DNA of 64,000 nucleotides. Origin: an uncultured Eubacteriales bacterium. GTDB lineage: Bacteria > Acidobacteriota > Aminicenantia > Aminicenantales > Saccharicenantaceae. The translations under genes were made by a program, and so were the position numbers. Positions 30,580 through 52,818 of this stretch are shown in pieces. The notes beneath the pieces were generated by a model. It was given only the letters and a program-made list of their open reading frames with translations. It was not told the DNA's origin and searched no databases. Numbering within the stretch: the stretch's first letter is position 1; each line of letters opens with the position of its first letter. The stretch covers positions 21,043 through 85,042 of the forward strand of contig CAZPEP010000039.1 of the NCBI GenBank assembly GCA_964585685.1, read 5' to 3'.

Positions 30580-30771
30580 TTCGTTAGGGGAGATCCGGAT
30601 GTTTCCGGGGTCTGAACGGCGGTCCGGAGACGCTGAGGTGAGGCGAGGATTGATTCTCCCGCAGCTGTTCGGATATATCCCTCGATGGTTCCCAATGGGG
30701 GGACGGCTAAAGAGACAGAGGCTGCGGTTGCTTCAAGCTCTCCATATGATTTCACAAAAAGGAGGACAACG

Positions 30772-32675: not shown

Positions 32676-34019
32676 ATGGGTTTGAATAATATCTTCCCGG
32701 CGTTCTTGGGCACTTTTTTTCTGCTCGGGGGAACCGTTGTCCAAGCCCAGGAGGCCAAGGCACGTTTTGAGATGCTGAACCTGATCAGGAAGGAGAAATT
32801 CGACAAGATCCTGCCGGGCGCGATGCGGGATCATCATGTCGACATGTGGATTCATGTGATCCGGAGAGGGGACCCCGACGCCTTCGCCCTGGATTTTGGA
32901 GCGACGATGGGCTCTATCATCTTTGCCGACAGGGGGGGAGACCGCATCGAGAGGGCTATATTCGGCAACAGTTTTGCCGACATTGCCGACGACTCCGTTT
33001 ATGACATCATCGGCGAGGAGACCGATATCACTCAGCATATCGCCGCGCGCGATCCTCAAAGGATCGCGATCAACATGTCGGAATCCCTCACCCACGCGGA
33101 TGGGCTTTCGCATACGGGGTATAAGAAATTGGCGGGTTTGCTGGGCGAGAAATACACCAATAGACTGATCTCTTCCGAAGAGGTTGTCACCGATTTCCGG
33201 GTGAGACGGGTCCAGACGGAAATCATTACCTTTGCCAAGGCCTGCGAGATCCAGAGACTCATCATGGAGGCGGCTTTGGGAAGCATAAAGCCCGGGGTCA
33301 CGACCCGGGAGGAACTCGGGTCGTGGGCGAATGATCAGCTGCTGTCCCAGAGAATCGAACCGTCATATTTCGGGCTGGATCTGCCCGGCATTCAGCATTC
33401 CGAAACCGCTGACCCTTCCGAAACCAGCCGACCGGGATATGCTTTCCAGAGGGGAGACCTGATATCGTGGGATTGGGGGATCCATTACCTCAATTTCGGA
33501 ACCGACTACAAACGAAAAGCGTACATCCTTCGGGAGGGAGAAACGACGCTTCCCAAGAGCATCCAGAAGGCTTGGGATAGAGGGCTGAAGGCCCGGGAAG
33601 TGATCTGTCGGACATTCACCGCGGGACGGACCGCGGGGGAAACGCTGAAGATCGTGGTCGCTGCTTTGGGAAAGGCGGGATTCGCCTATACGCCATTTAT
33701 GGATACCGATCGGGATGCTGAGATCATCCAGTCCCTGAGGGATTCGGATCAATCCGGATTTTCCATCGATTGCCATTGCGTGGGCAATACGGGCAACAGC
33801 GAAATCGCCGAGGGCCCCTCCATGGCGCCGTTCCGTCCCTATCGGGCCCATCTCCTGGTCCAGCCGAACAATCTCATCTCTTTTGAATTCATCGTACACA
33901 CCTGGATCCCTGAATGGGGAAAAAGGCTGGCCATCAACTTCGAGGACAATGCCGTCGTGACGGAACGAGGCGTGGAGGCGCTCTACCCTCGGAACGACAC
34001 GATCATCCTGGTCCGATGA
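32676..34019 (+). CDS. Secreted M24 (Xaa-Pro peptidase fold) metallopeptidase
   Basis: Signal peptide; ligand motifs WDWG...GTDYK, DCHCVG, SFEF, FEDN. Confidence 0.82.
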   Translation: MGLNNIFPAFLGTFFLLGGTVVQAQEAKARFEMLNLIRKEKFDKILPGAMRDHHVDMWIHVIRRGDPDAFALDFGATMGSIIFADRGGDRIERAIFGNSFADIADDSVYDIIGEETDITQHIAARDPQRIAINMSESLTHADGLSHTGYKKLAGLLGEKYTNRLISSEEVVTDFRVRRVQTEIITFAKACEIQRLIMEAALGSIKPGVTTREELGSWANDQLLSQRIEPSYFGLDLPGIQHSETADPSETSRPGYAFQRGDLISWDWGIHYLNFGTDYKRKAYILREGETTLPKSIQKAWDRGLKAREVICRTFTAGRTAGETLKIVVAALGKAGFAYTPFMDTDRDAEIIQSLRDSDQSGFSIDCHCVGNTGNSEIAEGPSMAPFRPYRAHLLVQPNNLISFEFIVHTWIPEWGKRLAINFEDNAVVTERGVEALYPRNDTIILVR

Positions 34020-34101: not shown

Positions 34102-34995
34102 ATGGGTTTTTCTTTGATAGAAAAGAAAGATGACACGATAAAAGCGTATGTGAGTTGCCTTCTGCTCTTGACTCTGGGCATTTTGGGGTGCCGATCGAAC
34201 CGCTCTCCGGCTCCGGAATCCCGAAAACTTCAGTTGACCAAAAAGGTCGAGGTCTTTGGCCTGTTTCTCTATGCGACCGATCGTGTGGCCGATGAAAAAT
34301 TGCTCCATGCGGCGCGTGTCCTGGCTGAATACCTGGATAACGATGAAAGCGGGATCCCCGACAACCCGCTGGTCCTAGAGGCGCTGCTTGCCCAAGATGC
34401 TGCCATCCTGATGGGCTGCGATGAGGACGAACTCCGTTCGCTGGACCGGGGGGGGATCCCCCCCGGGGCTACGCAATTCCTCTATGACTATGAGACGCGC
34501 CCGGGTGGGGCGGAACGGGGGGTTTTTGATGCGGCCGTCGAAGAGATCCTCCATCCCATCACCGACGTCGGATACGCGACCGCTTATCCGGATGTTTTCG
34601 GGACCGGCCCCGGCTCGGAAGTGGCCAGGATCATGGACGAGGCGAGGGGAGGCCATTTCGAGAAGGTCCCCGAGAAATATCCGGAAAGCGCTTGGTATAC
34701 CTATTATGATAAGACGTGCCTCTACGAATGCCAGGTCACGGAATATGTCTATTGGGCCTTAACATCGATACTCGGCGCTCAGGATTTCCCTGGACGCCTG
34801 GAGCAGATCCGGCAAGAGTGGAGATACAACACTCCAGAGAAGGTCAGGATGGGCGATCCAAAAGTCTATAATCTCTTAACGGATCCTCAGTACAGGTTCC
34901 CGACGTTCCTGCCGAACGGTGATTACGCCGCGAATTCCTTGACCATCCAGAAGCATGAATCCCTCATTTTGGACACGCCAGCTTCTGATCCTTGA
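34102..34995 (+). CDS. Uncharacterised lipoprotein, zincin-like EExxH domain (paralog 1)
   Basis: Lipobox ILGC; DAAVEEILHPITDVG...TEYVYW; exact start uncertain. Confidence 0.75.
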   Translation: MGFSLIEKKDDTIKAYVSCLLLLTLGILGCRSNRSPAPESRKLQLTKKVEVFGLFLYATDRVADEKLLHAARVLAEYLDNDESGIPDNPLVLEALLAQDAAILMGCDEDELRSLDRGGIPPGATQFLYDYETRPGGAERGVFDAAVEEILHPITDVGYATAYPDVFGTGPGSEVARIMDEARGGHFEKVPEKYPESAWYTYYDKTCLYECQVTEYVYWALTSILGAQDFPGRLEQIRQEWRYNTPEKVRMGDPKVYNLLTDPQYRFPTFLPNGDYAANSLTIQKHESLILDTPASDP

Positions 34996-36286
34996 ACTTG
35001 AGGAATTCGATATCCGCCAACTCGTCCTCTCCGTCACGACCGGGAAAGGTATCCTTGACGATGACTTTGTTGCCTGCTTCCTTTATCTCATATTCCGTGG
35101 AACTGCCTGAAAATTCCGCCGTATCTTTGCCTTCTCCCCCCGCGATCAGGTCATTTCCCTTTCCGCCAATGATCAGGTTGTTGCCGTCATTCCCTGTTAG
35201 CCTGTTATCCTGGTCATTGCCGAGAATGTTCGAATTGTTCTTCCCGGTCAGGATGATGTTGAGAAGGTGTTGGGATTTGTGGGTATATTCTGCATCCTGA
35301 TCAAGAATCGTTGAAAAAGTCCCTTCAAATGACGGATCGATATAGGCATTATAGGTCAAATATCCCGGCCAGAATTTTTCAACAAGACCGTCTAGAGCCG
35401 GGTCGCCCGCTTTCATTTCCGCTCTCGTATGGAAGGGATACTCGTTGCCAAAAGATTTCCCGTCACCCTGAGGATTGTGATCCCACAGGCCGAAATAGAT
35501 ATCGAAACCCGTGATGATGTATTCATGAGATGCCGGCCGCCCGTACAAATATTTCCCGGCTTTAACGGCCGCCTGTTCCGCCTCGACGATTTCCTTTTGG
35601 AATTCAGGCAGAACCTCCTCCAGTCCTTTGGCATGAACAAGATGCATGATCTCCTCATAGGAGGCATCCCGGGTAAAACGATGACCCGGCTTCGCCTTAT
35701 TGTGGAGATATTCATAACTGCCCTCGACGGGAGATTCCGTCGCATAGAGATCCTGGATCCTGAGCTCTGAATCCCTCAATATGGGACGCGTGGCAAAGGA
35801 CTTGATCTCCGTATCCGTATAGATGAGCGTGGCCCTGACGTCCGCCATCCTGTTGGCCAGCGCGGTTTTATCATGACCGTATTGCGTGCCGGGAGCATCG
35901 GTCAGATGGTATCTCAAGATCTCCCTCGCCCTAACAAGCTGCAAGTCACTCACGCCGGACTGGGCAAAAATATGGATGGGCTTGCCGTTGGGGGCCAAGT
36001 GTTTCGTGTATTTCGAGAACAGGCCGCTTAGCGTCTTCCCGAGCTCCTTCGGGAGCGGAACGATCCCGAGAGGGGACGTTGACGTGTCGATCCGGTCGAG
36101 GGCCGCATAATTGATGTCGATCCGTTCAGGCACGTCATATTTGACCTCTGCAACGGCCCTCTCCATTCTCGCCCTTCTGTCATCCTGGGCGGTTCGTTTT
36201 ACACTTGCGGCCGGCTGCCCCGTTCGCGTCCCACACGACAGGATCGAAAAGGCCACGATGATCATTGAGGCCGTCCGTCTCATCAT
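34964..36286 (-). CDS. Lipoprotein, EExxH domain plus C-terminal RTX/hemolysin-type Ca-binding repeats (paralog 2)
   Basis: Lipobox ILSC; DASYEEIMHLVHAKG...HEYII; GNDQDNRLTGNDGNNLIIGGKGNDLIAGGEGKD. Confidence 0.8.
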   Translation of the reverse strand: MMRRTASMIIVAFSILSCGTRTGQPAASVKRTAQDDRRARMERAVAEVKYDVPERIDINYAALDRIDTSTSPLGIVPLPKELGKTLSGLFSKYTKHLAPNGKPIHIFAQSGVSDLQLVRAREILRYHLTDAPGTQYGHDKTALANRMADVRATLIYTDTEIKSFATRPILRDSELRIQDLYATESPVEGSYEYLHNKAKPGHRFTRDASYEEIMHLVHAKGLEEVLPEFQKEIVEAEQAAVKAGKYLYGRPASHEYIITGFDIYFGLWDHNPQGDGKSFGNEYPFHTRAEMKAGDPALDGLVEKFWPGYLTYNAYIDPSFEGTFSTILDQDAEYTHKSQHLLNIILTGKNNSNILGNDQDNRLTGNDGNNLIIGGKGNDLIAGGEGKDTAEFSGSSTEYEIKEAGNKVIVKDTFPGRDGEDELADIEFLKFKDQKLACPK

Positions 36287-36478
36287 TTATGCCTCCTGTA
36301 GAAGAATTCCTGCTGCTAAGGGGCGGAGAATCCGGCAGTCTCGCCAGGCCAGGGTCATGGCGGCGACGAGAGAGACATGAGCGACGGCCTCACCGCGGGC
36401 GCCCGCGTTATCCGGCCGCCCGGTGGGGAGGCTGGGGTCAACCGCCGCCAAGACGTAAGGGACGTGTTTGGAAAACAC

Positions 36479-37375
36479 CTAGCGGTCCTCCGCGTTGGCG
36501 CTGTTCCCGGCAAATTCGTCGAGTGTCGACCGGCCGGGAGGCGCCATGACTTTCGGAATGGTGGTTTCGAAGAGCTTGAACGACCGGGGAAGCTTGGTTT
36601 TGAGTTCGGAGCTGTTCATGAAGGACCACTCGGCCTTTTTCGGGCCGTAAGGCTCCCGGAGATCCCAGGATGTATAGATGATCCAATACGCATATTCCTG
36701 GAGCAATATGCGATTCCATACGTCTTCGTTCTCTTTCTCATCCTCGTACTGTCTGATATCGTAATAGCCCTTCTGGATCGCTTCCTGCATCGCCTGATAT
36801 AGCTTTGAGGTTTTGGAGATGCCCCACTCTTCTGGAAACGTGTAATGAAGCCCGACGTCGGTCACGTGATGGAGGATGTGCTCGACGACCTCGTTGACCT
36901 GTCCGGGGACGCCTTCCATGATGATATCGCAGATGCTGTTCCGGCTTGTTGTAAGGTCCCAGGCCGCCCGGTCGGACGGATCAAACTCCTGCTCTTTGCC
37001 CTTAAAGAGCGGGATCACAGTCCGGTATTTATACATATTTGTGAGAATCTCTTTTTGCAGATCCCTATCGATGGCCTTATCTTGAGGAAATATTTTTTTG
37101 ATGGTTTGAGCGACCTTCCGCATAAATTCGTTGCTGATGTCGTCCCGGCCGATCAAAGTGATACCGTAGACCGAAAGTTTTTTCGTGAACGGCGCGTATT
37201 CGTCCGTCGGAACGATCTCGCTTTCTTGATAGAGATCGGAGGGCACTTCACCTACGGGCGAGACGAGGATGCAGCCCCCCAAATAGGTTTTTGCCGTTCC
37301 CGTCTTTTCAGCGGCGCATGAACCCAGCAGGGCGATCAAACAAAGAAAGGCCCAATAAACGCGTGGTGCGAACAT
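36479..37375 (-). CDS. Uncharacterised lipoprotein, divergent EHxxH variant (paralog 3)
   Basis: Lipobox LGSC; FTKKLSVYG...EVVEHILHHVTDVG...QEYAYW. Confidence 0.75.
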   Translation of the reverse strand: MFAPRVYWAFLCLIALLGSCAAEKTGTAKTYLGGCILVSPVGEVPSDLYQESEIVPTDEYAPFTKKLSVYGITLIGRDDISNEFMRKVAQTIKKIFPQDKAIDRDLQKEILTNMYKYRTVIPLFKGKEQEFDPSDRAAWDLTTSRNSICDIIMEGVPGQVNEVVEHILHHVTDVGLHYTFPEEWGISKTSKLYQAMQEAIQKGYYDIRQYEDEKENEDVWNRILLQEYAYWIIYTSWDLREPYGPKKAEWSFMNSSELKTKLPRSFKLFETTIPKVMAPPGRSTLDEFAGNSANAEDR

Positions 37376-37779
37376 ATCATATCCTCTTGATGCTTGCTAA
37401 TAATAAACGCATTGCAATATTATATGTATATCTGAAAACGCAATACCTAATATTATAGTCTAATTCAAATATATTATGCTCTCTTTTAGTTGGTTAATTA
37501 TGGCTGATTTCCATTCGCCGGGGGGGCATGGAAGTTGGAGTGCCCCTTGGCGAAATACCCAAGGGTTCGGAGCTTATCGCCGGGCTTGAATCGGCAAACG
37601 CGTTTCATCGCGATCGAGGAAGGCCTCGTCCGCGCTTCTTTTCCGGCCCTCCGCAAACGGCAACAACGCATACGGGATGGAAGAGAACCCGATAATTCAA
37701 CGCTGAGTCAATAATAATAGATATTATTACATCAGAAATGAAAGAAAAGGATAGTAATACAAATAAACGCAGATAAATC

Positions 37780-37808
37780 TTGACAATAGAAATTGTTCCT
37801 CTTATTCT
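37780..37808 (+). promoter_or_regulatory. Sigma70 promoter of TonB-dependent receptor 1
   Basis: TTGACA-N17-TATTCT in an AT-rich intergenic region. Confidence 0.65.
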
Positions 37809-37922
37809 GCTAATGGAAAGAGATGATAAATGATAAGGGGCGGAGATCCGGAAAAGGCCCCCTCTTTAATAGGAATCAAGGCATCAGTGATTCATAAAAG
37901 GATTATTTTGAGGGAGGCCTAA

Positions 37923-40688
37923 GTGAAAAAGCAAGGGATATTGGCTTTTTTCTGCTTTTTTCTAGCAACGAGCTTCATGGCTCAAGCCCAAACGACTGAA
38001 ATCGTCGGGAAAGTGAAATCGACAGAAGGAGAGGCGCTTCCGGGCGCCGAAGTCACGCTGACGTCTCCAAACCTCATCGGGGGCACTCAGAGTCGAATAG
38101 CGGACACGGAGGGGAAATACAGATTCGTCGCACTTCTGTCGGGCACCTATGAAGTCGAGGCGAAGCTCACGGGATTCAGTCCTCAGAAACATTCGGACAT
38201 CCGCCTGAGTCAGGGAAGGACCCTGACCGTGGACCTGATCCTTGAAGTCGGCACGCTCAATTCCGAGGTCACGATCGTCGCCGAAGCTCCGATCATCGAT
38301 ATTAAGGATTCACAAACGGTAACAACGACTTTAAAAACCGAATTTATCGATAAGCTCCCGAACAGGGATATCAACGGAGCGTTGGGTATGACGCCAGGGG
38401 TTTCCAACCGGTCCTCATTTGGTTCTGCCGCAAGCAATGCCAACAATTATCTGGTCAACGGCGTCAAGGTCAATGATCCGGAAGCCGGCGAAATGGGGAT
38501 GAGCCCGGACTACGATTCCATCGAGGAGATCAGCGTGGGGGGAGTCGGGGCTCCCGCAGAATATGACGGATACAGCGGCGCGGTGATCAACACGGTGATG
38601 AAATCGGGCGGCAACAATTTCAGCGCCCTATTCACCTTTTTCATGCGGGCGCCCGGTTTGCACAGCAATAACTGGGAGGATTATCCCTATCTGGTCAGAA
38701 AGAACTGGAGCGAAGCCTACGAGGTGAATTTCAATCTGGGCGGGGCGATCATCAAAGATAGGCTCTGGTTTTTCACGAGCGGAAAATACAACTACAGCAA
38801 AGCACACGTGGATGGTTTTAAGGGGCTTACGGAATCGGAGAACGGGCAGAGAGTCTCGGGAAAACTGACTTGGCAGGCAAGCAAGAGCGCCAGATTCTCG
38901 GTATGGGCCGGCGTCCAACCCAGCGTCATAGATAATTATGGGACGGACCCTCTCTGGGCGCCCGAGGCCAACACGAACGAAAAGCACCTGGATTACTATT
39001 TCAATTCCAATAATCTGCACACGCTTTCCGATTCTACGTTCCTTGAATGGAAAGTCGGAGGATTCCGCCTCAAAGGGCAAAATGGCGTCCAGAGAGATGG
39101 CCCCCCCGCACATTTCGATCTGGCCACAGAAGAACTGTCCGGAAGCTATCCGTCAACCTACTATCGTACGAGTCTCCGCGTTCAAACCGGCGTAACCTTG
39201 ACCCATCACGCCGAGGATTTCATAAAAGGCGATCATGATTTCAAGTTCGGAGCGGAAGCCGAAATATCCAATGTCAATATCTCGTACAATTTTCCCAGCA
39301 ACAAGTATTATCTTGATTACAGCGGAGAGAACTACCTTCTGGACGAATGGGATGGAGAGGCGGGGAATCCCAAATCCCGAACGCTCTCGGCCTTTGTCCA
39401 GGACAGCTGGACGATCACTGACCGATTGGTCATCAATCCGGGCCTGAGGATCAATTATTGGAGAGGGTATGTTCCCGGAATCAACGGTCCCGCCTTTTCT
39501 CCCAAAACGGGCATCGCACCCCGTTTTGGAATAACCTACGATGTGTTCGGAGACAACTCGACAGCCCTAAAAGCCCACTACGGCAAGTATTATCACGGGA
39601 TCATGGGGCAATTCTATTTCCGTCTGCAGCCCCAGGGAGGATTTAGGGAATATGTCTGGGGGCCGATCTACGACGAGTGGAATGAGCTCCCGCCGGGAAC
39701 CCATGGTGAAGAATGGGTGTTGGATTTTGAAAACATATGGAAGAACGAATATACGGTTGACCCGAACCTGAAGATGCCCTATATGAACCAGTACGTCCTG
39801 GGCATTGAAAGGGAGCTCGGGAAGAACGTCTCTGCAGGTGTTAGTTTCATCTACAGGACCAATCATGATTTCCAGGACAGGGTGAACATCACGGGGCAGT
39901 GGGAACAGACAACTTGGACCTGTGACCTTGACGGCCCCAATTTCGGGAAAACATACACCGTTTTCAGGAGACTCAATCCCGGTGAGAATCAATACTATCT
40001 CACGAACCCCAAAGCGGGCAATGATTACGGAGCGGCATTCCCGGGGATTGTCGCGTTTACTCCTTCCCGCAAGTATCGGGGCCTTCAATTCACCTTTGAA
40101 AAAAGATGGTCGAACAGATGGATGCTGAACGCGTCTTACGTGTGGAGCCGATCGTGGGGCACGGACGACAATGCCTGGGGCGAATGGGGAGAGAACAGGG
40201 GTTCGATGCTCGGCTCTTCAACCCTGTTTTCCAATCCCAATTATCAGATCAATGCCGAAGGGCCCCTCAGCATCGACCCCTCCCACCAGGTGAAGATCTT
40301 CGGGGCCGTGGATATCCCCGTCATCGATGTCACGCTCGGCCTATCCTATGGCTTCACCTCCGGCAATCCTTACAATTCCAATGTGGCCCTGCCCAGGGAA
40401 ATCGATCCGGATTCGATCAATGGGGAGGATTGGGTCTTTATCTATGGAGAACAGCGGGGCCGATACCGCTATCCCGCGATCCACAACATCGATTTAAGGC
40501 TTGAAAAATTCATCAAGTTCGGAAACATCAGGGTCGCGGCGCTAGCCGATGTCTTTAATGCCCTTAACAGCAATGCGGTAACGGATTATCGAAGAGATAT
40601 CAGGCCGGGAACGAGCTACCCGTTCGGATATGTCTGGCGCATTAGCAGCCCGAGAACCTTCAGGCTTGGATTCAGATTCGAATTCTAG
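37923..40688 (+). CDS. TonB-dependent receptor with an N-terminal carboxypeptidase-regulatory-like domain
   Basis: Signal peptide; LPGAEVTL...GKYRF, plug NNYLVNGV...SIEEISV...PAEY, FVQDSWT, C-terminal RLGFRFEF. Confidence 0.92.
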   Translation: MKKQGILAFFCFFLATSFMAQAQTTEIVGKVKSTEGEALPGAEVTLTSPNLIGGTQSRIADTEGKYRFVALLSGTYEVEAKLTGFSPQKHSDIRLSQGRTLTVDLILEVGTLNSEVTIVAEAPIIDIKDSQTVTTTLKTEFIDKLPNRDINGALGMTPGVSNRSSFGSAASNANNYLVNGVKVNDPEAGEMGMSPDYDSIEEISVGGVGAPAEYDGYSGAVINTVMKSGGNNFSALFTFFMRAPGLHSNNWEDYPYLVRKNWSEAYEVNFNLGGAIIKDRLWFFTSGKYNYSKAHVDGFKGLTESENGQRVSGKLTWQASKSARFSVWAGVQPSVIDNYGTDPLWAPEANTNEKHLDYYFNSNNLHTLSDSTFLEWKVGGFRLKGQNGVQRDGPPAHFDLATEELSGSYPSTYYRTSLRVQTGVTLTHHAEDFIKGDHDFKFGAEAEISNVNISYNFPSNKYYLDYSGENYLLDEWDGEAGNPKSRTLSAFVQDSWTITDRLVINPGLRINYWRGYVPGINGPAFSPKTGIAPRFGITYDVFGDNSTALKAHYGKYYHGIMGQFYFRLQPQGGFREYVWGPIYDEWNELPPGTHGEEWVLDFENIWKNEYTVDPNLKMPYMNQYVLGIERELGKNVSAGVSFIYRTNHDFQDRVNITGQWEQTTWTCDLDGPNFGKTYTVFRRLNPGENQYYLTNPKAGNDYGAAFPGIVAFTPSRKYRGLQFTFEKRWSNRWMLNASYVWSRSWGTDDNAWGEWGENRGSMLGSSTLFSNPNYQINAEGPLSIDPSHQVKIFGAVDIPVIDVTLGLSYGFTSGNPYNSNVALPREIDPDSINGEDWVFIYGEQRGRYRYPAIHNIDLRLEKFIKFGNIRVAALADVFNALNSNAVTDYRRDIRPGTSYPFGYVWRISSPRTFRLGFRFEF

Positions 40689-40713
40689 GCGCGGAGCCGC
40701 ACAGCTGGAAAAG

Positions 40714-40737
40714 AGGGGAGGGAATTTCCCCTCCCCT
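40714..40737. terminator. Hairpin between convergent TBDR and sulfatase genes
   Basis: AGGGGAGGG-AATTTC-CCCTCCCCT. Confidence 0.55.
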
Positions 40738-40739
40738 GC

Positions 40740-42941
40740 TCACCGACACTTGAAAATGAGCTCATCCAGCTGTTGCCTTTCTCCCGGAGGCAATACCGCA
40801 TAACAGTAGACTTTATATCTCTGAAGATAATCGAGAGCCTGGGTTTTTTCCCCCCGCTGGAGATAGGCCAATCCCAGATTATAGAGGGCGAAACCATAGT
40901 CCGCCTTCAGTTCGACGGCCCTTTTCCAGTTCGCCATCGCCCCGTCCATATCACCGGCCATCTTCAGGGCGATTCCGAGGCCGTTGTATGCGGATTCATG
41001 TTTCGGATCGAGACCAATAGCTTCTCTGAATAATCCAGCGGCCTTTTGGTGAGCTTCCTGCTCCTTGGTCTTGAGATAAATCGAAAGATATAGAGATCCA
41101 AGGTTAGTCATAACCGTCGGATAGTTGCGGTCGAGGGACAGCGCATGTTCGAACGCTTTGAGAGCCTCCTTAAAGTTGCCTCTGTTCCAATAAGCGACCC
41201 CCAGACAGTTCCAGAGCTCCGGATCAAAGTCAATAATCGTCAATCCCTGCTTCAGAATATCGATCGCCCGTTCCGGGGCCCCCGCTTCGGCCAGAAAGAG
41301 GCCGTAGGTGATGATGATCTTGTAATTTCCGGGGCAATTCCGATAGCCTTCCTCGAGAACGTCGAGGGCTTCTTTGAGGTTCCGCCGTTCTTTGTAAAGC
41401 GTCGCGAGATAGGTGTAGGCCTGATCGAAGTCCCTTCTCTTGGCTATGATCCCTCTGAGAAGTTCCGCCCCCTTGTCGACATCTCCTTTTTGACAGGCCG
41501 CCATCGCCTCCTGAAGCTGGGTCTGATATGGGAGGAGGACTTTGAGGTCGTCCTGTGACGTAAACGTCCTTTTTCGCGGCGAATGAGGGCTGGAAACATA
41601 ACCCAGGCTTCTCAGGTTTTCCCTCGTCTGCCGACCGGCATTTTGTTCGGCGGCACCCGGACCGGCGTATGCTTGTTTCTCCATCAGGGCCGCAAGCGTC
41701 GTTCTGTAGGTCTCGAGGGAGGCCGAATCGGCGAGGTTCTTGAGCTCGTTATAATCTTCGTGCAGGTCGTACAGTTCGGGGATGGGGGAATCCATGAATT
41801 TGATGTCGTTCTGAATGAATCCTCTCAAGGGCGCCCAGCCTCGGCTGTAGAAGGGGTAGAGCGATTCAAAATAGATCTGTCTTTCAGGGGTCTTCCGGCC
41901 CTTCATCACCGGCAGGAGAGAATAACCCTGGAGATGAGCGGGCTTCTCGATCTCCAGAGCTTCGCACACAGTGGGGAAAATATCGATGTGGGAGACGGAG
42001 GCATCGATATTCGCCGGCCCTATTCCGGGAGAATCAATGATGAGAGGAATTCCAATGGTGCTGTTGTAAGCAAAATATCCGTGGGTGGATTCCCCATGTT
42101 GACCCAGGGACTCCCCGTGATCACCGGTGAAGACGATCAGGGTTTGTTCCTCGAGCCCGTGGATGCGGAGATAATCCAGCAGCCGGCCGAGAGCATCGTC
42201 CACATAGGCCACCTCACCGTCATAGGGGGCGTCCTTGTATTCCGTTTTGAAAGGTTCGGGGGGATTATACCGCTGATGCGGATCGAAGCAGTGCACCCAG
42301 AGAAACCAGGGCCCGTTTTGGCCGTCCACCCATTTCAGCGCTTTCTGGACGACCGCTTCGGCCTTCCTCTCTACGTAGGAGAACTCCTGAGAGTCGTTCG
42401 TCCCATAATTGTCGTCATAGACATCGAATCCCTGGGTGAGACCGAACCGGGAATCGAGCGGAAAAGCTCCGACAAAAGCCCCGCTGGCGTAGCCGTTGTT
42501 TTGGAGATGCTCGGCGAGGGTCAGGAACTCCTCGCGGACCATGAAGTTCTGATTGTCATGGACTCCGTGAAAAACGGGTGTTGTTCCCAGAAGAATACTG
42601 GCATGGGAGGCGAGGGTCGTCGTGGCATGGGCGAACGCCCTCCGGAAAAAGGCTCCCCGCCTGGCCAAGCTGTCGATATTGGGCGTCTTGACGCGGTCGT
42701 TTCCATAACAGCCGAGCCGGTCCGCCCGCAGGGTATCCACGGTGATGAGGAGGACGTTGAGCCTTCTTTGCCCTGTCCCGCCTTCTCCCGGCTGGGTCGT
42801 GGAGAACAAGGAAAGGAAGAAAAGCAGGGTGAACACGGAGATCGCCGAAAAGGACCGCTTTATAGGAGGGCCGGATCTTCCGTGAAGGCCCGATTTAATG
42901 AATCCGGATCGCTCGCCCAATCGGCCGCCGTTAGGAATCAT
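40740..42941 (-). CDS. Sulfatase/alkaline-phosphatase-superfamily hydrolase with C-terminal TPR repeats
   Basis: LLITVDTLRAD, TLASH, WVHCFDPH, GDHGESLGQHGE; multiple TPRs; start uncertain (42941-43043). Confidence 0.88.
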   Translation of the reverse strand: MIPNGGRLGERSGFIKSGLHGRSGPPIKRSFSAISVFTLLFFLSLFSTTQPGEGGTGQRRLNVLLITVDTLRADRLGCYGNDRVKTPNIDSLARRGAFFRRAFAHATTTLASHASILLGTTPVFHGVHDNQNFMVREEFLTLAEHLQNNGYASGAFVGAFPLDSRFGLTQGFDVYDDNYGTNDSQEFSYVERKAEAVVQKALKWVDGQNGPWFLWVHCFDPHQRYNPPEPFKTEYKDAPYDGEVAYVDDALGRLLDYLRIHGLEEQTLIVFTGDHGESLGQHGESTHGYFAYNSTIGIPLIIDSPGIGPANIDASVSHIDIFPTVCEALEIEKPAHLQGYSLLPVMKGRKTPERQIYFESLYPFYSRGWAPLRGFIQNDIKFMDSPIPELYDLHEDYNELKNLADSASLETYRTTLAALMEKQAYAGPGAAEQNAGRQTRENLRSLGYVSSPHSPRKRTFTSQDDLKVLLPYQTQLQEAMAACQKGDVDKGAELLRGIIAKRRDFDQAYTYLATLYKERRNLKEALDVLEEGYRNCPGNYKIIITYGLFLAEAGAPERAIDILKQGLTIIDFDPELWNCLGVAYWNRGNFKEALKAFEHALSLDRNYPTVMTNLGSLYLSIYLKTKEQEAHQKAAGLFREAIGLDPKHESAYNGLGIALKMAGDMDGAMANWKRAVELKADYGFALYNLGLAYLQRGEKTQALDYLQRYKVYCYAVLPPGERQQLDELIFKCR

Positions 42942-43069
42942 CGGAGCGAAGTATATCATAGCCCTCTCCCGGTGCCGTGCGGCCATTTCCGGCAGCTTGA
43001 GTTCCTGATGAAATATCTTTAAGATGGCGGGCCGAATCCGCACGCGCGTCGCTATCCCGGGTCCTCGCT

Positions 43070-45028
43070 TTAATAGCCGGGGGACCAGTTGGGACTTGAT
43101 CCTTCTGCGATCTTCTTCAATCCCGAGCCATCAAGATGGACGACATAGATAGAAGGCGGATGCCCTTCATCGCCAGAAACAAACACAACACGCGATCCAT
43201 CCGGCGAGAAGGAAGGGAAGGAGTCCCCAATAGCCAAGTTTTGGGTGAGCCGTCTCTTGTGGCTCCCATCAGCATTCATCACCCAGAGGTCCTTATCTCG
43301 TTCAATGCCGTGTGACCACGCGATCATCGAGCCATCTCGTGAAAAGCAAGGCCACTCGTCGAGCTGTTCGTTGTCCGTCAGCCGCTTCAGATTCTCCCCG
43401 CTGTCGGCACGGATCGTATAGATTTCCGGATTTCCGTCTCTCCCTGACTCAAAAACAAGCAGGGGTTCGACGGGAGACCAACTCTGGTATCCTCCGTGTA
43501 TGCCATTTCCCGCGACGGCTTTTGGATTGGCACCGTCGATATCTATTATTTCAATGGAACGGCCCTCTTTTCCTTCCGCCGTATAGGCGATCTTCCTGCC
43601 GTCGTGTGACCAGCATGGAGTATCCGGGAACCCAGCACCGGTGCCGACCTTTCTTAGGTTTATGCCCCCACGATCGATGAGGTACAACCCCCGGGTGCTC
43701 CCGTCATAAGAAACGAACATAATACTCTTGCCGTCGGGCGACCAGCTGGGCCATTCCACGGAAAACGCCAGATCGGCCAGCCGCCTTTTTCCGGAGCCGT
43801 CTTCGTCCATGCTGAAGAGCTCTCTGCGGTTCCCGGAGGCGGCAAGGTAGATGATCTTGGATGTCTTCAGGCCCCAACCCATCTCCCCAAAAAACTCTTC
43901 GCGGGTGGGGAACAGAAAGGAGACGATCTCATATAGCTCGGGATCGTACTTCTTGAGATTGTCGGCTGTCATCAGCACGTCGTTGTTGATGCTCAACCGG
44001 TATGCCGGCTGCATCGGGTTGCCGTTTTCATCCTGCAAACGGCCCTTGGAAAGCTTGTTTTGAAACACCCCGTAGTAGATATCCAAACCGATAGCAAGAT
44101 ATTCATAGCTGAATGAATCGGCCGGCAATCCATCCCAAGGGCGGAATAATTTCCGGTCTATGGCGTCTTGTGTCGCCTTTTCCAGGCGCTTCTGAACCTC
44201 CGGGTAGGCTTCCATGATTCCCCCTTCATGGACCACATGGGTGATCTCCTCAACGGACGCATCCCGGCGCAGGTTGGCCGGCCCGCCCAGACGCAAGTAA
44301 TCCGGGATGATCTCTTCGTCCTCCAGATCCTGATCCCTCATTCCCAGGCTCCTGCTGTGCATGAAGAAACCGATGGACGTGTTGCGCTCCTCATAGGTTT
44401 TGAACAGGGTCATGACCCATTTATCCCGTTTGAGGTTAAGCGTGATCTTGCCCGATCCTTTCCTATCTTTGGAGAGAAGGGCCTCGGCCACCTTGGCCGC
44501 ATACTCGATCTTCTTGGGATCGACACCCGCAGTGGCATAGAAGCTCATCCCCGACCCCTCGATCCGTTGCGTGAAAATATCCAAGGCGTGTTCCCTTCGC
44601 GGCGTCTCTTCCAACGCCACGATGATCAGGACTTGTTCCATGAATCCATCCTCGTTGGCAGCCCTGACTTCAGCGTAATAGTGGGCCGGGCAGCTGGCCG
44701 GCCGCGCTTTGAGCCGGACCTCGGCCGTACGGGGGTCGATCTCCACGATCGCTGTCGCATCCATCTGGCCTTCTTTCAAATAGTTCCTCCGGTCCCCCCC
44801 GGGGACAGGAGGAACTAGGCTCCACGCGACCTTCTTGCTGTTGGGAAAAACAAGGTTGATCCGGCCGATCGCGTCGCCGATTTGTGTCGCTTTCGTCACC
44901 AGGAAGAGGTCGAATTCGTCGGTGACCACGGGAGGATCGAACTTCTTTTTCCCCGCACAGCCGCTCAAGACAACGAGCAGGCCCAACCCCAATAGACAGC
45001 AAAAGATCAATAGGAATAATCTTTTCAC
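43070..45028 (-). CDS. Lipoprotein: cadherin-like domain, EExxH domain and TolB/PD40 beta-propeller (paralog 4)
   Basis: Lipobox LSGC; DASVEEITHVVHEGG...YEYLA; repeated PSWSPDGK/PCWSHDG/PSFSPDG. Confidence 0.8.
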   Translation of the reverse strand: MKRLFLLIFCCLLGLGLLVVLSGCAGKKKFDPPVVTDEFDLFLVTKATQIGDAIGRINLVFPNSKKVAWSLVPPVPGGDRRNYLKEGQMDATAIVEIDPRTAEVRLKARPASCPAHYYAEVRAANEDGFMEQVLIIVALEETPRREHALDIFTQRIEGSGMSFYATAGVDPKKIEYAAKVAEALLSKDRKGSGKITLNLKRDKWVMTLFKTYEERNTSIGFFMHSRSLGMRDQDLEDEEIIPDYLRLGGPANLRRDASVEEITHVVHEGGIMEAYPEVQKRLEKATQDAIDRKLFRPWDGLPADSFSYEYLAIGLDIYYGVFQNKLSKGRLQDENGNPMQPAYRLSINNDVLMTADNLKKYDPELYEIVSFLFPTREEFFGEMGWGLKTSKIIYLAASGNRRELFSMDEDGSGKRRLADLAFSVEWPSWSPDGKSIMFVSYDGSTRGLYLIDRGGINLRKVGTGAGFPDTPCWSHDGRKIAYTAEGKEGRSIEIIDIDGANPKAVAGNGIHGGYQSWSPVEPLLVFESGRDGNPEIYTIRADSGENLKRLTDNEQLDEWPCFSRDGSMIAWSHGIERDKDLWVMNADGSHKRRLTQNLAIGDSFPSFSPDGSRVVFVSGDEGHPPSIYVVHLDGSGLKKIAEGSSPNWSPGY

Positions 45029-45070: not shown

Positions 45071-47380
45071 TCATTTGCCGAGCTCCAACAAAACCGTTGT
45101 TCTGATGTCATGTGAGGAGCTCCCGACCATGATCTCGAACGACCCCGGCTCCACGATCCAGCCTTTTGTGTCGACGTCGTAAAATGCAAAAGCATCCTTT
45201 CCCAGTTCAAACGTCACGGTCCTTTTTTCCCTGGGTCGCAGAGAGATGCGTCGGAATCCCTTGAGCTCCTTGATAGGCCGGACAACCGACGAGGACTGGT
45301 CGCGAACGTACACCTGAACCACTTCATCCCCAGCGCGGGGGCCGGTGTTCTGAATATCGACGCTTGCGGTCGCCGATGTCGGGGAGGATGCCCGTGCCCG
45401 AAGGTTCGAATAGGAAAACGTCGTATAGCTCAACCCGTGGCCGAACGGAAAGAGCGGCCCGACGGGAGAATCTCTGTATTCCTTGTCGCCCCCCGGGAAC
45501 TTGTTATAATAAACGGGGATCTGCCCGACATTCCTGGGGATCGAAACCGGAAGCCGCCCGGCCGGGTTGATATCGCCGAAGAGCGCCTCCGCGACCGCGG
45601 TGCCGGTTTCTTGACCCAAGAACCACCCGGAGAGGATGGCGGGGATGTTTTCGGCGATCCAGGGGATGGACAGGGGGCGGCTTTGAAGCAACACGGCGAC
45701 GATCGGAACGCCCGTGGCATGGATGGCCTTCACCAATTTTTCCTGATAGCCGACGAGATCCAGGCTGTCCGAATCTTCTCCTTCCTTGGCGGTCAACTCG
45801 TTTCCGCCGATGACAAGAACGACTAAGTCCGATTTCTCGGCGGCCTTCACCGCGCCGGAAATATTTTCCTTTCCCCAGTCGATGAGGCTGCAACCTTCTT
45901 CATAAAGAACATCGACATCTTTTCCGACAGATGCCTTGATCCCATCCAAGACGGTGACAAAGTGGCGGGCTTCCGGAGTGGAATACGCCCCCAGGATTTC
46001 CACATTGGCATTGGGCCCGATGACGGCGATCCTTTTTAAGTTTCCTTTATCCAGGGGGAGGTGGTTCCCGTCATTTTTCAGGAGGGTTATGGCTTTTCTG
46101 GCGACCTCGAGGGCGAGCTGATCGTGGGTTGGGTCGTTGATGATCTCTTCCCAGCCTTTTCTCGGCACCCCAAGGCGGTGGAGCTTGTTGAAATAGTCGT
46201 TGGTGCCTTTATCCAGGCCGCGGACGGCCTTTGTATGCTCCATCTCCACATACTCGGGCCATCCCTTAATGGGCCCCAAGCCTTCGTCTCCCGAGGCCAT
46301 GTGGTCTTGCCAAGGGTAGACGGGCTCGCCGTTATCGAACAGGCCAAGCCGGAATTTGGTCCGTAAAACGTTTCCGGCGGCCCGGTCGATCAGCTCAACG
46401 GGAACCTTACCGCCGGCAACAGCTTGGATCAGGTTGGCCCCGTAGACGCGGTCTTTCCATGGCCTTTCGATGGCCAATTCCTGGTCAACGCCAACTTCCA
46501 AGGCCAATCGGGCCGCTTCCGCCAGGGATTCGGCAATGCGTTTCGTCGTGTAGAGGGAGCGGATGTCTCCGTTGTCGCTGATAATGTGCCCCCTGAATCC
46601 ATATGTATCCCTGAGAATCTCATCCAGGATGTATTTATTCGCGTGGCAGGGGATGCCGTTGAGCGCATGATGAGCGGGCATGATGCTGCCGACATGGGCC
46701 TCTTCTACGGCGGCCCGGAACGGAGGGAGAAAGATCTCCTGGAGCCGGCGGATCGAAACGTCCATTTCCGTGCCGTTCAATCCGGCGAGAGGCTGACCGT
46801 CGGCGACATAATGCTTTGCTGAGGCGATGATGTGGTTCTCGTCGAACAATTCCGTCCCGGTGCCCTGGAGCCCTCTGATGTAGGCCACACCTATCCTCGA
46901 CACGAGATAGGGATCTTCGCCGTAGCTTTCTTCCGAGCGCCCCCAACGGGGGTCGATCAACACACCCAGCATCGGGGAATAAACCTGGTGGGTACCCAGG
47001 GCTCGGGCTTCCTTGGCCACGACGGTCCCCACACGTTCGATGATTTCCGGGTCCCAGGTGCTTCCCATGGCCAGGGGTGACGGGAAGCTTGTGGCATGTT
47101 TCAGGCAGATGCCGTGGAGCGCTTCGCCCGCCTGAAGGTGGGGAATTCCCAGTCTCACGACAGCATTGGGATACAGGGTTGCCAGCTGATGGGCCTTCTC
47201 CTCCAGGCTCATTCTCGGAAGCAGGTCGTCGATCCGTTGATCGATCGAGAGGTCGCGGTTTTTATAAGGAGGGATATCAGTGGCCTTGGCCTTTCGCTGG
47301 CACGCGAAGGGCCATCCGGCCAGGAATATGATCATTAGGCCTAAAACGCATTTCTGGGATTGCCTTCGGTCGCTTATCAT
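45071..47380 (-). CDS. Glycoside hydrolase family 3 (beta-glucosidase/xylosidase) with a C-terminal Fn3-like domain
   Basis: GEALHG, RWGRSEESYGEDP, AKHYV, IISDNG nucleophile region, LFPFGHGLSYT, KELKGF; GAGGTG RBS. Confidence 0.93.
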   Translation of the reverse strand: MISDRRQSQKCVLGLMIIFLAGWPFACQRKAKATDIPPYKNRDLSIDQRIDDLLPRMSLEEKAHQLATLYPNAVVRLGIPHLQAGEALHGICLKHATSFPSPLAMGSTWDPEIIERVGTVVAKEARALGTHQVYSPMLGVLIDPRWGRSEESYGEDPYLVSRIGVAYIRGLQGTGTELFDENHIIASAKHYVADGQPLAGLNGTEMDVSIRRLQEIFLPPFRAAVEEAHVGSIMPAHHALNGIPCHANKYILDEILRDTYGFRGHIISDNGDIRSLYTTKRIAESLAEAARLALEVGVDQELAIERPWKDRVYGANLIQAVAGGKVPVELIDRAAGNVLRTKFRLGLFDNGEPVYPWQDHMASGDEGLGPIKGWPEYVEMEHTKAVRGLDKGTNDYFNKLHRLGVPRKGWEEIINDPTHDQLALEVARKAITLLKNDGNHLPLDKGNLKRIAVIGPNANVEILGAYSTPEARHFVTVLDGIKASVGKDVDVLYEEGCSLIDWGKENISGAVKAAEKSDLVVLVIGGNELTAKEGEDSDSLDLVGYQEKLVKAIHATGVPIVAVLLQSRPLSIPWIAENIPAILSGWFLGQETGTAVAEALFGDINPAGRLPVSIPRNVGQIPVYYNKFPGGDKEYRDSPVGPLFPFGHGLSYTTFSYSNLRARASSPTSATASVDIQNTGPRAGDEVVQVYVRDQSSSVVRPIKELKGFRRISLRPREKRTVTFELGKDAFAFYDVDTKGWIVEPGSFEIMVGSSSHDIRTTVLLELGK

Positions 47381-47420
47381 GTTACCCACCTCGGTTTCCG
47401 GGAATCCCTCTTTTCGATTC

Positions 47421-49190: not shown

Positions 49191-49522
49191 TCCTCCTCCT
49201 CTTGCTTTGTATTCCGAATATGTCAATTATTTTAATGCATATGTTATCGTATTGTGAATAATTATATATAGAATAGAATAATTAATCGCTTATGATTATA
49301 CATATTCAATTTCTCGGCCTCAAGAAGAGGCTCGGCCTATCCCGCGGGGCATGCCGCCGGCCTTTCTTCGGAGAGAAAAACGAACCGGACGGCGTTGCGT
49401 TTTTTCTTCCCCCTGGGCATGATAAACTCGCGTTCCGCTCGGAGACTCGGATGATCGCATGGCCGAACAAGCTTTCCGCATAGAGAGAGCGGAGATAATC
49501 CGAGATCAAAAAAGGAGGATCC

Positions 49523-50478: not shown

Positions 50479-51516
50479 TTAGAGAACCTGCGCTTTCATC
50501 CAGCCGGCCGTGTTATGAAAATTGGCCACATTGCTGCCGGGGGGGACAAGATTGTCGCAGGCTTCCCTCAGCTCTTTGGAGAGGGTCATTTCCAGGACCG
50601 GCAGCAGGTCTTCAAGATGCTCCATCTTCTCGGGACCGATCAAAGGCGCGGTGATGCCCGGCTGGTCCTTACACCATAGAACTCCCAGCTGAGCCGGCGT
50701 CAGACCCGCATCATGGGCCAACTTGGAGAATTTCTTGCCGACCTCAATGCCTTTTCGCGTCACACGATCGGCATAAAATCCTCCGCGCAATGCGGCTCGC
50801 GAATCCGGGGGAAAGACGCCTTCCTTGTCATAGACGCCGGCTAAGATGCCCATCGCCAGGGGAGACCAGGTGATGATTCCCAGGCCGTACTTTTGTGTCA
50901 TGGGGATCAATTCGTTCTCGATGCGCCGGTCCAACAGGTTGTAGGGGGATTGTTCCGTAGCAAATCGCACATAACCCTTCATTTCGCTGAGGAGGATCGC
51001 TTCCATCACCGCCCACGCCGGAAAGGTGGAGCACCCGACATATCGGATCTTCCCCTGACGGACGAGGTCCGTCAGCGCACCCAAGGTCTCCTCGATGTGC
51101 ACGGTCAGGTCCTGACGGTGGATCTGGTAGAGGTCGATATAATCCGTTTGGAAGCGTTTCAAGGACCCTTCAACCGCACGCATGATGTTCAGTCGCGTCG
51201 GACCGTTTTGATTGGGACCGAGCTCAGGGACGAACTCATCCAGGGTCAATCCAGGACGGCGCTGCCCATGATCACACTTTGTGGCCAGCAGTACCGAAGG
51301 ACGCAGGCCGCTTTCCTTCAGGGTTCGACCGATGATCCGCTCGCCTTCCCCTTCCGCATAGGAATCGCCTGTATCGAAAAGATTGATTCCGGCCTCCACG
51401 GCGCGAAGCAACATCGCCGCCGATTCCTTCTCCGGCACCGGGTCTGCAAAGCAGTCCGTTCCAAAACAGAGGGGTGAAACGTTCACTCCGGTTCGTCCTA
51501 AAGTCCGATATTGCAT
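50479..51516 (-). CDS. Aldo/keto reductase
   Basis: VSPLCFGT, FDTGDSY, SLKRFQTDYIDLYQIH, GKIRYVGCS, QSPYNLL, WSPLAMG. Confidence 0.95.
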   Translation of the reverse strand: MQYRTLGRTGVNVSPLCFGTDCFADPVPEKESAAMLLRAVEAGINLFDTGDSYAEGEGERIIGRTLKESGLRPSVLLATKCDHGQRRPGLTLDEFVPELGPNQNGPTRLNIMRAVEGSLKRFQTDYIDLYQIHRQDLTVHIEETLGALTDLVRQGKIRYVGCSTFPAWAVMEAILLSEMKGYVRFATEQSPYNLLDRRIENELIPMTQKYGLGIITWSPLAMGILAGVYDKEGVFPPDSRAALRGGFYADRVTRKGIEVGKKFSKLAHDAGLTPAQLGVLWCKDQPGITAPLIGPEKMEHLEDLLPVLEMTLSKELREACDNLVPPGSNVANFHNTAGWMKAQVL

Positions 51517-51776
51517 GTCCTACCTCCCGTCAAAACGGATGGCTTCCGCCCCACTCTTCGTCTCAGAAATTCCGAGAGTGAGGGGGCCATAGCATTGTCC
51601 TTGTTTATTCTAACAAAAACGTAATAAAAACCAACAATTATAATATATGATCGAATATGTCAATAGCTATTCTCTGAATGTCACATATAAGTTGCAATTT
51701 GTAAATATATTGTTAATATTAATTACCGATGTTAAAATCAATTGGGCTATCTTCGGATACGAGTTCATTCTAGGAT

Positions 51777-52814: not shown

Positions 52815-52818
52815 GAAC

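Follow-up and report, generated by a model that had tools for sequence, protein, structure and literature searches.

A widespread, unnamed family of secreted E-E-x-x-H domains linked to a divergent M24-type peptidase: candidate extracytoplasmic metal-dependent hydrolases

Four lipoprotein paralogs at one locus

The stretch of DNA considered here, which we call the window, is 64,000 nucleotides long and comes from an uncultured Eubacteriales bacterium that GTDB places in the Acidobacteriota (Aminicenantia; Aminicenantales; Saccharicenantaceae; GenBank assembly GCA_964585685.1, contig CAZPEP010000039.1, forward-strand positions 21,043 to 85,042). Between positions 34102 and 45028 it contains four lipoprotein genes, here termed p1 to p4, the products of which have in common a homologous domain of about 250 amino acids with a conserved E-E-x-x-H...E signature. 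In this paper we describe the domain and the family to which it belongs, together with the divergent M24-type peptidase that accompanies it, and we discuss the evidence that it may be an extracytoplasmic metal-dependent hydrolase.

A first-pass annotation of the window, made by a model from the letters and the translated open reading frames (ORFs), had reported four lipoproteins sharing one collinear domain, and in this it was accurate. All four ORFs are present at the positions it gave (Table 1) and each begins with a lipobox-type signal, the cysteine being residue 30, 18, 20 and 24 in p1 to p4, respectively. The central motifs that it listed (DAAVEEILHPITDVG, DASYEEIMHLVHAKG, EVVEHILHHVTDVG and DASVEEITHVVHEGG) and the downstream EY motifs (TEYVYW, HEYII, QEYAYW and YEYLA) agree exactly with the translations. 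BLASTP connects p1 with p3 (4e-10), p2 with p4 (3e-12) and p1 with p4 (3e-7), while the other pairs, at 1e-3 to 0.015, are connected transitively, and phmmer concurs; by these measures the similarity among the four domains is well beyond chance. A hidden Markov model (HMM) built for the family, as the annotation had proposed, finds exactly these four genes in the window, with E-values from 2e-110 to 8e-53.

The accessory modules had been described as RTX repeats in p2 and as cadherin-like plus PD40 in p4. The tail of p2 does qualify as RTX, with a Pfam HemolysinCabind match over residues 356-389 (31.3 bits against a cutoff of 23; 2e-7), and the C-terminus of p4 carries multiple PD40 repeats (84.5 bits in four stretches; 4e-24) and matches the TolB propeller model at 1.6e-43, under the equivalog cutoff of that model. 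The cadherin-like label had to be dropped, as residues ~25-143 of p4 match no cadherin, Ig-like or other Pfam model at E<=1 and have no relatives among the fetched proteins. Within the shared domain, the second histidine (H-x-x-H) noted in two copies is found in the motifs of p2 and p4, and the copy with histidine at the catalytic-position glutamate, which the annotation had taken to suggest a binding-only member, is p3 (E-H-x-x-H). The p1 protein also has a calcium-like loop, DNDxxGxPDN (residues 79-88), as well as H69 and a C206/C210 pair.

The convergent p1 and p2 genes overlap by 32 bp at their 3' ends (34964-34995). In the public entry for p2 (P0389) the protein is 400 amino acids long, 40 residues short of the window ORF, and starts at the internal Met 41. 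Such a start would deprive the protein of its lipoprotein signal, and the longer start is supported because most orthologues are ~440-450 amino acids in length.

Table 1. Features of the window discussed in the text (nt, nucleotide positions; aa, amino acids)
Feature	Coordinates (nt)	Strand	Length (aa)	Description
p1	34102-34995	+	297	Lipoprotein; domain only, ~aa 40-286
p1 motif	34540-34554	+		E147-E148-x-x-H151
p1 distal Glu	34741-34743	+		E214
p2	34964-36286	-	440	Lipoprotein; N-terminal helical extension, then domain, then RTX repeats
p2 domain	35297-36040	-		aa 83-330
p2 RTX repeats	35087-35251	-		aa 346-400
p2 motif (start)	35642-35656	-		E211-E212-x-x-H215-x-x-H218
p2 distal Glu	35522-35524	-		E255
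p3	36479-37375	-	298	Lipoprotein; domain only
p3 motif	36869-36883	-		E165-H166-x-x-H169-H170; second position is His
p3 distal Glu	36695-36697	-		E227
p4	43070-45028	-	652	Lipoprotein; N-terminal module (aa ~25-143), domain, propeller
p4 domain	43916-44599	-		aa 144-371
p4 propeller	43079-43915	-		PD40/TolB-like beta-propeller, aa ~372-650
p4 motif (start)	44237-44251	-		E260-E261-x-x-H264-x-x-H267
p4 distal Glu	44102-44104	-		E309
M24-like (pita-bread) protein	32676-34019	+	447	Signal peptide; 83 bp upstream of p1, same strand
Oar-type TonB-dependent receptor	37923-40688	+	921	CarboxypepD_reg, weak Plug, OMP_b-brl_4
Sulfatase + TPR protein	40740-43043	-	767	27 bp downstream of p4; contextual neighbour
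GH3 glycosidase	45071-47437	-	788	Upstream of p4, same strand
M14 peptidase	47421-49226	-
Aldo/keto reductase	50479-51516
M28 peptidase	56238-57833
Second M24-like protein	57821-59200			Paralog
Second Oar-type receptor	59813-62632			20 kb from the main locus
Aldehyde:ferredoxin oxidoreductase	30685-32658			Just upstream of the M24-like/p1 pair
RelA/SpoT homologue	17224-19662			In high-G+C stretch
Asparagine synthase	22541-24499			In high-G+C stretch
ORF	51765-52916	-	383	No Pfam match at E<=1e-4
ORF	62835-63731	-	298	No Pfam match at E<=1e-4

Conserved residues and motif variants

In an alignment of 55 sequences representing all four types only three columns are invariant, namely the first glutamate and the histidine of E-x-x-x-H and the glutamate of EY, and we refer to the domain after these residues as the E-H-E domain. 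Among 171 domain instances taken from the 150 best representatives of the family, the first glutamate is retained in 164 of 165, the histidine in 162 of 165 and the distal glutamate, which lies 40-63 residues downstream of the motif on a predicted helix, in 161 of 166. The residue after the first glutamate is Glu in 151 cases, His in 11, Lys in two and Gln in one. Canonical HExxH is found in none of the 171 instances, the first position never being histidine. The E-E-x-x-H...E signature that had been proposed as the conserved core is thereby borne out across the family alignments.

Individual types have further conserved features of their own. Proteins of the p1 type have an invariant or near-invariant His69, a loop resembling a calcium site (DNDxDGxPDN), an RGG motif and a Cys-x-Tyr-x-Cys pair, and those of the p2 and p4 types have the additional histidine of H-x-x-H. 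In the p3 orthologue group E-H-I-L-H is invariant in 23/23 aligned members, and group-specific invariants comprise an N-terminal G-G-C directly after the lipobox and an N-S-x-C-D-I-I-M-E segment that precedes the putative metal motif.

Size and distribution of the family

The window proteins match large numbers of clusters at 90% identity (911 for p1, 785 for p3 and 365 for the p2 domain), nearly all of which are unnamed or labelled 'hypothetical', with a handful bearing other automatic names; the closest homologues of p1, p3 and the p2 domain carry the name Aminicenantes. A profile search of 1.84 billion representatives, clustered at 50% identity, returned 2,066 proteins at E<=1e-3, of which 471 reach E<=1e-30. 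The p1 type by itself has at least 576 relatives in a scan of one genome per species, with carriers in the Aminicenantes, Acidobacteriota, Poribacteria, Planctomycetota, Chloroflexota, Verrucomicrobiota, Kiritimatiellia, Bacteroidota and Gammaproteobacteria, and cultured carriers include Aliikangiella coralliicola M105 and Pseudoalteromonas sp. NBT06-2. A regular-expression test finds a lipobox in 100/120 orthologues of p3, 91/120 of p2 and 54/120 of p1.

The first-pass annotation could not name a family for the domain and our searches of Pfam, NCBIfam and the PDB, all of them empty on the shared region, lead to the same result. Eighteen members and three family consensus sequences gave zero Pfam matches on the domain at E<=10, NCBIfam likewise gave zero, and sequence-profile searches of the PDB with three alignments at E<=10 returned spurious short matches only. 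A literature search for an EExxH peptidase motif yielded only papers on ZIP8 and ZIP14, and a wider search on zincins, lipoproteins and TonB found no description of the domain family. Judged from these searches and the export signals, the domain is real, widespread, unnamed and secreted.

The M24-like partner

The M24-like protein encoded just upstream of p1 scores 41.1 bits against Pfam M24 (cutoff 23) and keeps all of the candidate metal ligands D266, D277, H367, E404 and E423. It aligns to Pyrococcus prolidase (1pv9/1wy2), with both Asp ligands matched and H367, E404 and E423 in conserved blocks. No NCBIfam model matches it and its best E-value in the PDB is 2e-3. Like the M24 peptidases prolidase and aminopeptidase P, it is above the Pfam M24 threshold and has the five ligand positions filled in the window copy; unlike them, the partner family is very divergent and secreted, and the Asp-Asp ligand segment has been lost in several of its lineages, fusions included.

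The genomic context of the p1 type was compared within 10 kb of the 80 best reference-genome loci. An M24-like homologue is present at 23 of the 80, where it is fused in nine cases, lies within 300 bp in 11 and is farther away in three. The nine fusions (Acidobacteriota, Holophagales and Multivorans) are single full-length ORFs in which an N-terminal family domain is followed by a C-terminal M24-like part (L073 9794-12127, L056 9830-12124, L080 9845-12124 and six more loci), and the unfused genes within 300 bp are on the same strand in 9/11 cases. For the p3 type the comparison covered 80 metagenome contigs (868 kb; 55 lineages at 90% identity, with >=8 kb of sequence in 30 lineages). Here an M24-like gene is directly adjacent at 20 loci in 16 lineages, 22 of 25 pairs being co-directional, and seven contigs contain an array of the order M24 > p1 > p3 > ... 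p2 > ... p2 > M24 with junctions of 4-20 bp. Strong members of the partner family also account for some of the 'unannotated' neighbours in the Pfam-annotated contexts. The idea that homologues elsewhere might adjoin peptidases is upheld in the form of fused or adjacent M24-like proteins at p1- and p3-type loci. On the evidence of gene order and fusion, the partner conserved across phyla is a divergent M24-type peptidase, sometimes fused, and not the neighbouring outer-membrane receptor.

One contig (L134, 1-17398) is occupied by a single-strand 17-kb array of four M24-like and four E-H-E domain genes, which also includes a PD40 double propeller, a PD40-amidohydrolase fusion, an Amidohydro_1 enzyme and an aldo/keto reductase; an aldo/keto reductase is likewise found near the cluster in the window and in the Aminicenantes contig L001. 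At two loci (L060 and L032; OZ252239.1 and OZ244870.1) short ORFs stand in place of an intact family gene and of several intact M24-like genes, perhaps through frameshifts or as pseudogenes in long-read assemblies of metagenome-derived genomes. The OZ252239.1 genome has many copies, since six of the 80 best p1-type loci come from it.

Paralog clusters and domain fusions

Clusters of paralogs recur outside the window. L001 has one copy of each of the four types within 13 kb and no receptor, and in Acidobacteriota and Gammaproteobacteria, too, genes of the p1 and p2 types occur as neighbours; in these comparisons the four-paralog cluster itself is conserved. The window genes had also been placed among many peptidases, as is indeed the case, with two M24-like genes, an M14 and an M28 peptidase gene nearby (Table 1).

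Among the long representatives of the family the domain is fused to Peptidase_S8 (two proteins), to trypsin-like/S1 domains (two proteins), to a TAP-like (S33) alpha/beta hydrolase, in cultured Pseudoalteromonas too, and to DPPIV-type and PD40 propellers, in Aliikangiella too. Further fusions involve Ig-like domains, EF-hands, RTX repeats, DUF4214, YCII, a type IX secretion system (T9SS) sorting tail and others, and also 3-keto-disaccharide hydrolase, BNR and YHYH domains. What these fusions have in common, as far as domain matches go, is that the proteins are secreted or at the surface, and peptidase modules are clearly over-represented among them. Two results read from these genomes go beyond what the first-pass annotation had described, namely the Rosetta-stone evidence connecting the domain with a divergent M24 family and the arrays of several paralogs that are conserved across phyla.

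Predicted fold and the comparison with zincins

Confident AlphaFold2 models were obtained for p1 (predicted local distance difference test, pLDDT, 88.2; predicted template modelling score, pTM, 0.81) and for the p2 domain (pLDDT 83.2; pTM 0.82). The order of elements is alike in both, with a beta-hairpin, a helix, more strands, a long helix and a later helix. In the models E-E-x-x-H occupies the first two turns of the long helix, the last strand comes shortly before it and the distal glutamate is on the later helix. Zincins have a backing helix, an edge strand, an active-site helix and a glutamate helix, in that order, and the order in the models is compatible with this.

The domain had been read as a zincin-like architecture, a reading that is weakly supported. 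Besides the fitting order of elements, the top matches of the p1 model in a Foldseek search of the PDB are gluzincins, the twelve best being clostridial M9 collagenase peptidase domains (best E 8e-3, probability 0.72, template modelling (TM) score 0.27), after which come IRAP (M1), anthrax lethal factor (TM 0.35, root mean square deviation 6.9 A) and the Bacteroides structure 4l7a. The top PDB matches of p1 overall range in E from 8e-3 to 1.2 and in TM from 0.22 to 0.35. Against a viral library an M1-like aminopeptidase appears for the p1 model, the same soft trend, without a significant match. Lethal factor was compared by fold only (TM 0.31-0.35).

Sequence or profile homology to known zincins was not detected. 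The proposed comparison with zincins such as M4, M34 and M90 by HHpred- or Foldseek-type methods gave sub-threshold Foldseek matches and a null result in hhalign, where the family alignments scored a probability of 0.1% against E. coli MtfA, the sole zincin sequence compared, with the motif unaligned. Formal membership of clan MA(E) is not supported, as the HExxH motif that defines the clan is missing and the profile comparisons gave no homology. Mean-field direct-coupling analysis, applied to the packing of the two motif helices with ~249 effective sequences, gave top pairs that are local or gap-driven. The zincin reading, which leans on predicted models, is therefore best seen as a plausible lead with consistent sub-threshold structural support rather than an established assignment. 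A ferritin-like diiron site (ExxH) was also considered and dropped, the family having a single ExxH and a predicted fold that is mixed alpha/beta and not a four-helix bundle.

Set beside the gluzincins (M9, M1, M34 and M90), the E-H-E domain, as modelled, resembles them in having its motif in the first turns of a long helix after a beta-strand, a glutamate on a later helix 40-63 residues on and an acidic residue at motif position 2. Gluzincins are the sole enzyme families topping the p1 fold search, and the domain is predicted to be extracytoplasmic, as are many secreted zincins. It differs from them in that the first histidine is a glutamate (164/165), in its lack of profile similarity with TM values of <=0.35, and in the p3 group with histidine at the general-base position. 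The calcium-like loop and Cys pair of the p1 type are not known from these families.

The 4l7a structure, a Bacteroides caccae 'putative zinc-binding metallo-peptidase', is presumably a member of the substrate-import-associated zinc metallohydrolase lipoprotein family, which is SusC/SusD-adjacent, and it is a weak fold match to the p1 model (TM 0.31/0.33). These Bacteroidota proteins are likewise lipoproteins; their zincin-type domain is small and their genes lie next to those of TonB-dependent receptors, an arrangement like the one that the first-pass annotation envisaged. As generally described, they have canonical HExxH and are consistently linked to SusC/SusD pairs, whereas the family described here has EExxH, no SusD and only rare linkage to a receptor.

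A proposed function and its alternatives

The account that we favour, with middling confidence, is that the domain represents a family, so far without a name, of metal-dependent hydrolases that act outside the cytoplasm and are most probably peptidases or amidases. Homology, the invariant triad, the export signals and the fusion or adjacency to M24-like proteins support it directly; metal binding, catalysis, the class of substrate and the spatial proximity of the triad we infer. The invariant Glu, His and Glu (E147, H151 and E214 in p1) would hold a metal ion, with a single turn of the long helix separating the first Glu from the His and the third ligand, the distal Glu, contributed by a later helix. 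The adjacent E148 could be the general base, a position taken by His in p3, and the conserved Tyr beside the distal Glu may help in the transition state. The site would be a gluzincin arrangement in which a Glu takes over from the first His. In p1-type proteins the DxDxDG-like calcium loop and the Cys pair would probably be stabilising.

Their signals mark the proteins as exported and, in this organism, as lipid-anchored. The domain and its divergent secreted M24 exopeptidase-like partner, often with amidohydrolase-type enzymes, may degrade peptides outside the cytoplasm. The paralogs would be specialised, p4 being propeller-gated, p2 RTX-tailed and p3 altered in its base, and the accessory modules may serve to anchor the enzyme or to gate access of substrate. 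Propellers of the kind that restricts substrate access are known from the S9 peptidases (prolyl oligopeptidase/DPP-IV) and tricorn, and the PD40/TolB-like propellers of p4 and of the Aliikangiella protein (L061) are of this kind. Unlike those enzymes, p4 has no alpha/beta-hydrolase domain and has the E-H-E domain instead, with the propeller C-terminal.

The metal may be other than zinc, because replacement of His by Glu in HEXXH retunes metal preference in ZIP8. In the transporters ZIP8 and ZIP14 (SLC39A8/A14), EEXXH replaces the HEXXH of the family, and reversion of ZIP8 from EEXXH to HEXXH abolished Mn transport (PMC10457451). This is a precedent for a metal site that is retuned and not destroyed; unlike our proteins these are unrelated membrane transporters, so that the analogy extends to metal-site chemistry only.

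Several findings weigh against the hydrolase account. The profile comparisons gave no relationship with a family in Pfam, NCBIfam or the PDB, nor with MtfA, and Foldseek found nothing in the PDB below E 1e-3 for either model. The p2 model fares worst, with a best E of 0.43 and with ERAP1/2, PSA and lethal factor scattered among unrelated alpha/beta folds. In twenty divergent p2-like copies 'DNY' aligns at the place of 'EY', which puts Asn, with Asp before it, in the column of the distal Glu, and the whole p3 group has His where the general base is presumed. Finally, in the M24-like half of all nine fusions the Asp-Asp ligand segment (~25 residues) is deleted, with the His and the first Glu kept, so the pairing is not simply one of two active peptidases. 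Loss of this segment would be in keeping with catalysis by the E-H-E half of the protein in the fusion lineages.

A related possibility, which we consider rather unlikely but real, is that the domain is not a diverged zincin at all. It would then be a new metallohydrolase fold with a Glu-His-Glu site of the Mn/Fe/Co type and the obligate partner of pita-bread proteins, the two forming a two-component extracytoplasmic machine for peptide or amide processing, widespread in uncultured phyla, in which the pita-bread half would in some lineages be a scaffold only, without a metal site of its own.

It is unlikely, in our view, that the domain is a non-catalytic accessory, whether a metal-binding, metallochaperone-like loader or regulator of the secreted M24-like and amidohydrolase enzymes, which on this account need Mn, Co, Fe or Zn, or a peptide-presenting subunit. 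The strongest comparative signal speaks for it, as fusions and junctions of 4-300 bp tie the domain physically to M24-like proteins, but the domain is also fused to serine peptidases without a catalytic metal (S8, S1 and S33) and is often alone, 65/80 p1-type loci being single copy and 57/80 having no M24-like gene within 10 kb. A Glu-His-Glu site favours harder metals, as in the EEXXH of ZIP8/14, significant similarity to any enzyme fold was not found and p3 is without the presumed catalytic Glu, all of which also speaks for such a role. Against this, K47, H69, E131, D143, E147, E148, H151, D179, R182 and E214 are kept across phyla at 45-65% identity, a pattern like that of an active site, and the loss of ligands in the fusions affects the M24-like half.

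Less probable again is a role as hydrolase or lyase in the breakdown of substrates that are hybrid or not peptides at all, for example debris from glycopeptides or muropeptides, sulfated glycoconjugates or small amides; the peptidase-like neighbours would in that case attack other portions of the same substrate. A GH3 gene recurs beside family genes in Aminicenantes (the window, L001, L087 and L112-L118), but it does so on Aminicenantes contigs only, a linkage confined to one phylum and to 2/80 p1-type loci. Sulfatase-domain genes flank 24/80 loci, but several of the host phyla are very rich in sulfatases. The arrays contain amidohydrolases and an aldo/keto reductase, and these, like the fusions to 3-keto-disaccharide hydrolase, BNR and YHYH domains, point to such a substrate, yet the tightest and most frequent partners, fusion partners included, are peptidase families.

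The neighbouring TonB-dependent receptor

The first-pass annotation had made the TonB-dependent receptor between p3 and p4 the centre of a surface 'capture/cleave and import' system without a SusD partner. The absence of SusD is confirmed, the receptor being flanked by p3 and the sulfatase/TPR gene with no SusD-type match. It is divergent from p3, across a gap of 548 bp, and convergent with the sulfatase gene, and from gene order it is a transcription unit separate from all four lipoprotein genes. The Oar subclass to which it belongs is defined by the CarboxypepD_reg extension, and the founding member was needed for the export of a protease (PMC6434023), so import by the receptor cannot be assumed.

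Conserved adjacency of the family to such receptors, which the annotation had suggested looking for, was not found. No receptor homologue is present within 10 kb at any of the 80 p1-type loci, and no receptor of any kind in six Pfam-annotated contexts, three of which are Aminicenantes contigs with p1, p2, p3 or p4 types. The p1-type loci had by themselves led us to regard the receptor as never conserved, a view that was revised after the p3-centred metagenome scan. In that scan orthologues of the window receptor are directly adjacent to family genes in six p3 contigs, representing three of ~30-55 lineages, either divergent from p3 as in the window (L093 and L094) or co-directional upstream of p2 (L137, L138, L142 and L145). 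With a receptor density of ~1 per 58 kb in the p3-type contigs, chance placement and inherited synteny would, by a rough estimate, produce about two such adjacencies. Judged from gene order, the receptor is a neighbour and not a conserved component or defining feature, though it may have a functional link with the family in some lineages.

That the four lipoproteins are surface capture-and-cleave factors feeding the adjacent receptor, in peptide import resembling a polysaccharide utilisation locus without SusD, is accordingly the least likely of the explanations: the gene order of the window, the lipoprotein nature of all four proteins and the two arrangements in three further lineages speak for it, but the import system is mostly unsupported when set against the receptor-free p1-type loci from many phyla, the near-chance frequency at p3-type loci, the separate transcription unit, the protease-export role of the Oar founder, a second receptor of the same type in the window and the presence of the family in Chloroflexota and in fusions with T9SS or secreted modules.

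Significance

If the triad does bind metal and catalyse hydrolysis, the domain would define a new metallopeptidase or metallohydrolase family of at least ~2,000 clusters at 50% identity, a family that Pfam, NCBIfam and PDB searches do not recognise and whose p1 type by itself occurs in at least 576 species-level genomes. Several of the carrier phyla (Aminicenantes, Acidobacteriota, Planctomycetota, Poribacteria and Chloroflexota) dominate organic-matter turnover in sediments and the sea, settings in which the breakdown of proteins outside cells is of central importance but poorly annotated. If the first His of a zincin-like site can indeed be exchanged for Glu, the chemistry known for this class would be extended, and one would ask which metal such a site employs. 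Both unnamed families gain a testable functional context from the fusions and operons that join the domain to a divergent secreted M24 protein, and experiments are feasible in the cultured carriers Aliikangiella coralliicola M105 and Pseudoalteromonas sp. NBT06-2.

Other features of the window

On the minus strand the genes for the M14 peptidase, GH3, p4 and the sulfatase/TPR protein form a string, and a promoter and terminator scan lent only weak support to the inferred transcription units. A second set, made up of the M28 peptidase, the M24-like paralog and the second Oar-type receptor, occupies 56238-62632, and the family HMM finds no E-H-E domain gene adjoining it in the window. The two ORFs of 383 and 298 amino acids without a Pfam match are outside the E-H-E family, and an Rfam scan of the whole window gave zero RNA elements. 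The G+C content is 0.61-0.67 at 2001-12000 and 16001-26000, as against 0.51-0.58 elsewhere in the window, the locus included; these stretches, the genes of which include the RelA/SpoT homologue and the asparagine synthase, may reflect uneven composition, an island or a join made during assembly.

The aldehyde:ferredoxin oxidoreductase gene upstream of the M24-like/p1 pair has counterparts within a few kb of family genes at six other loci (L094, L096, L127, L128, L130 and L139), and such an enzyme would fit an amino-acid-fermenting lifestyle.

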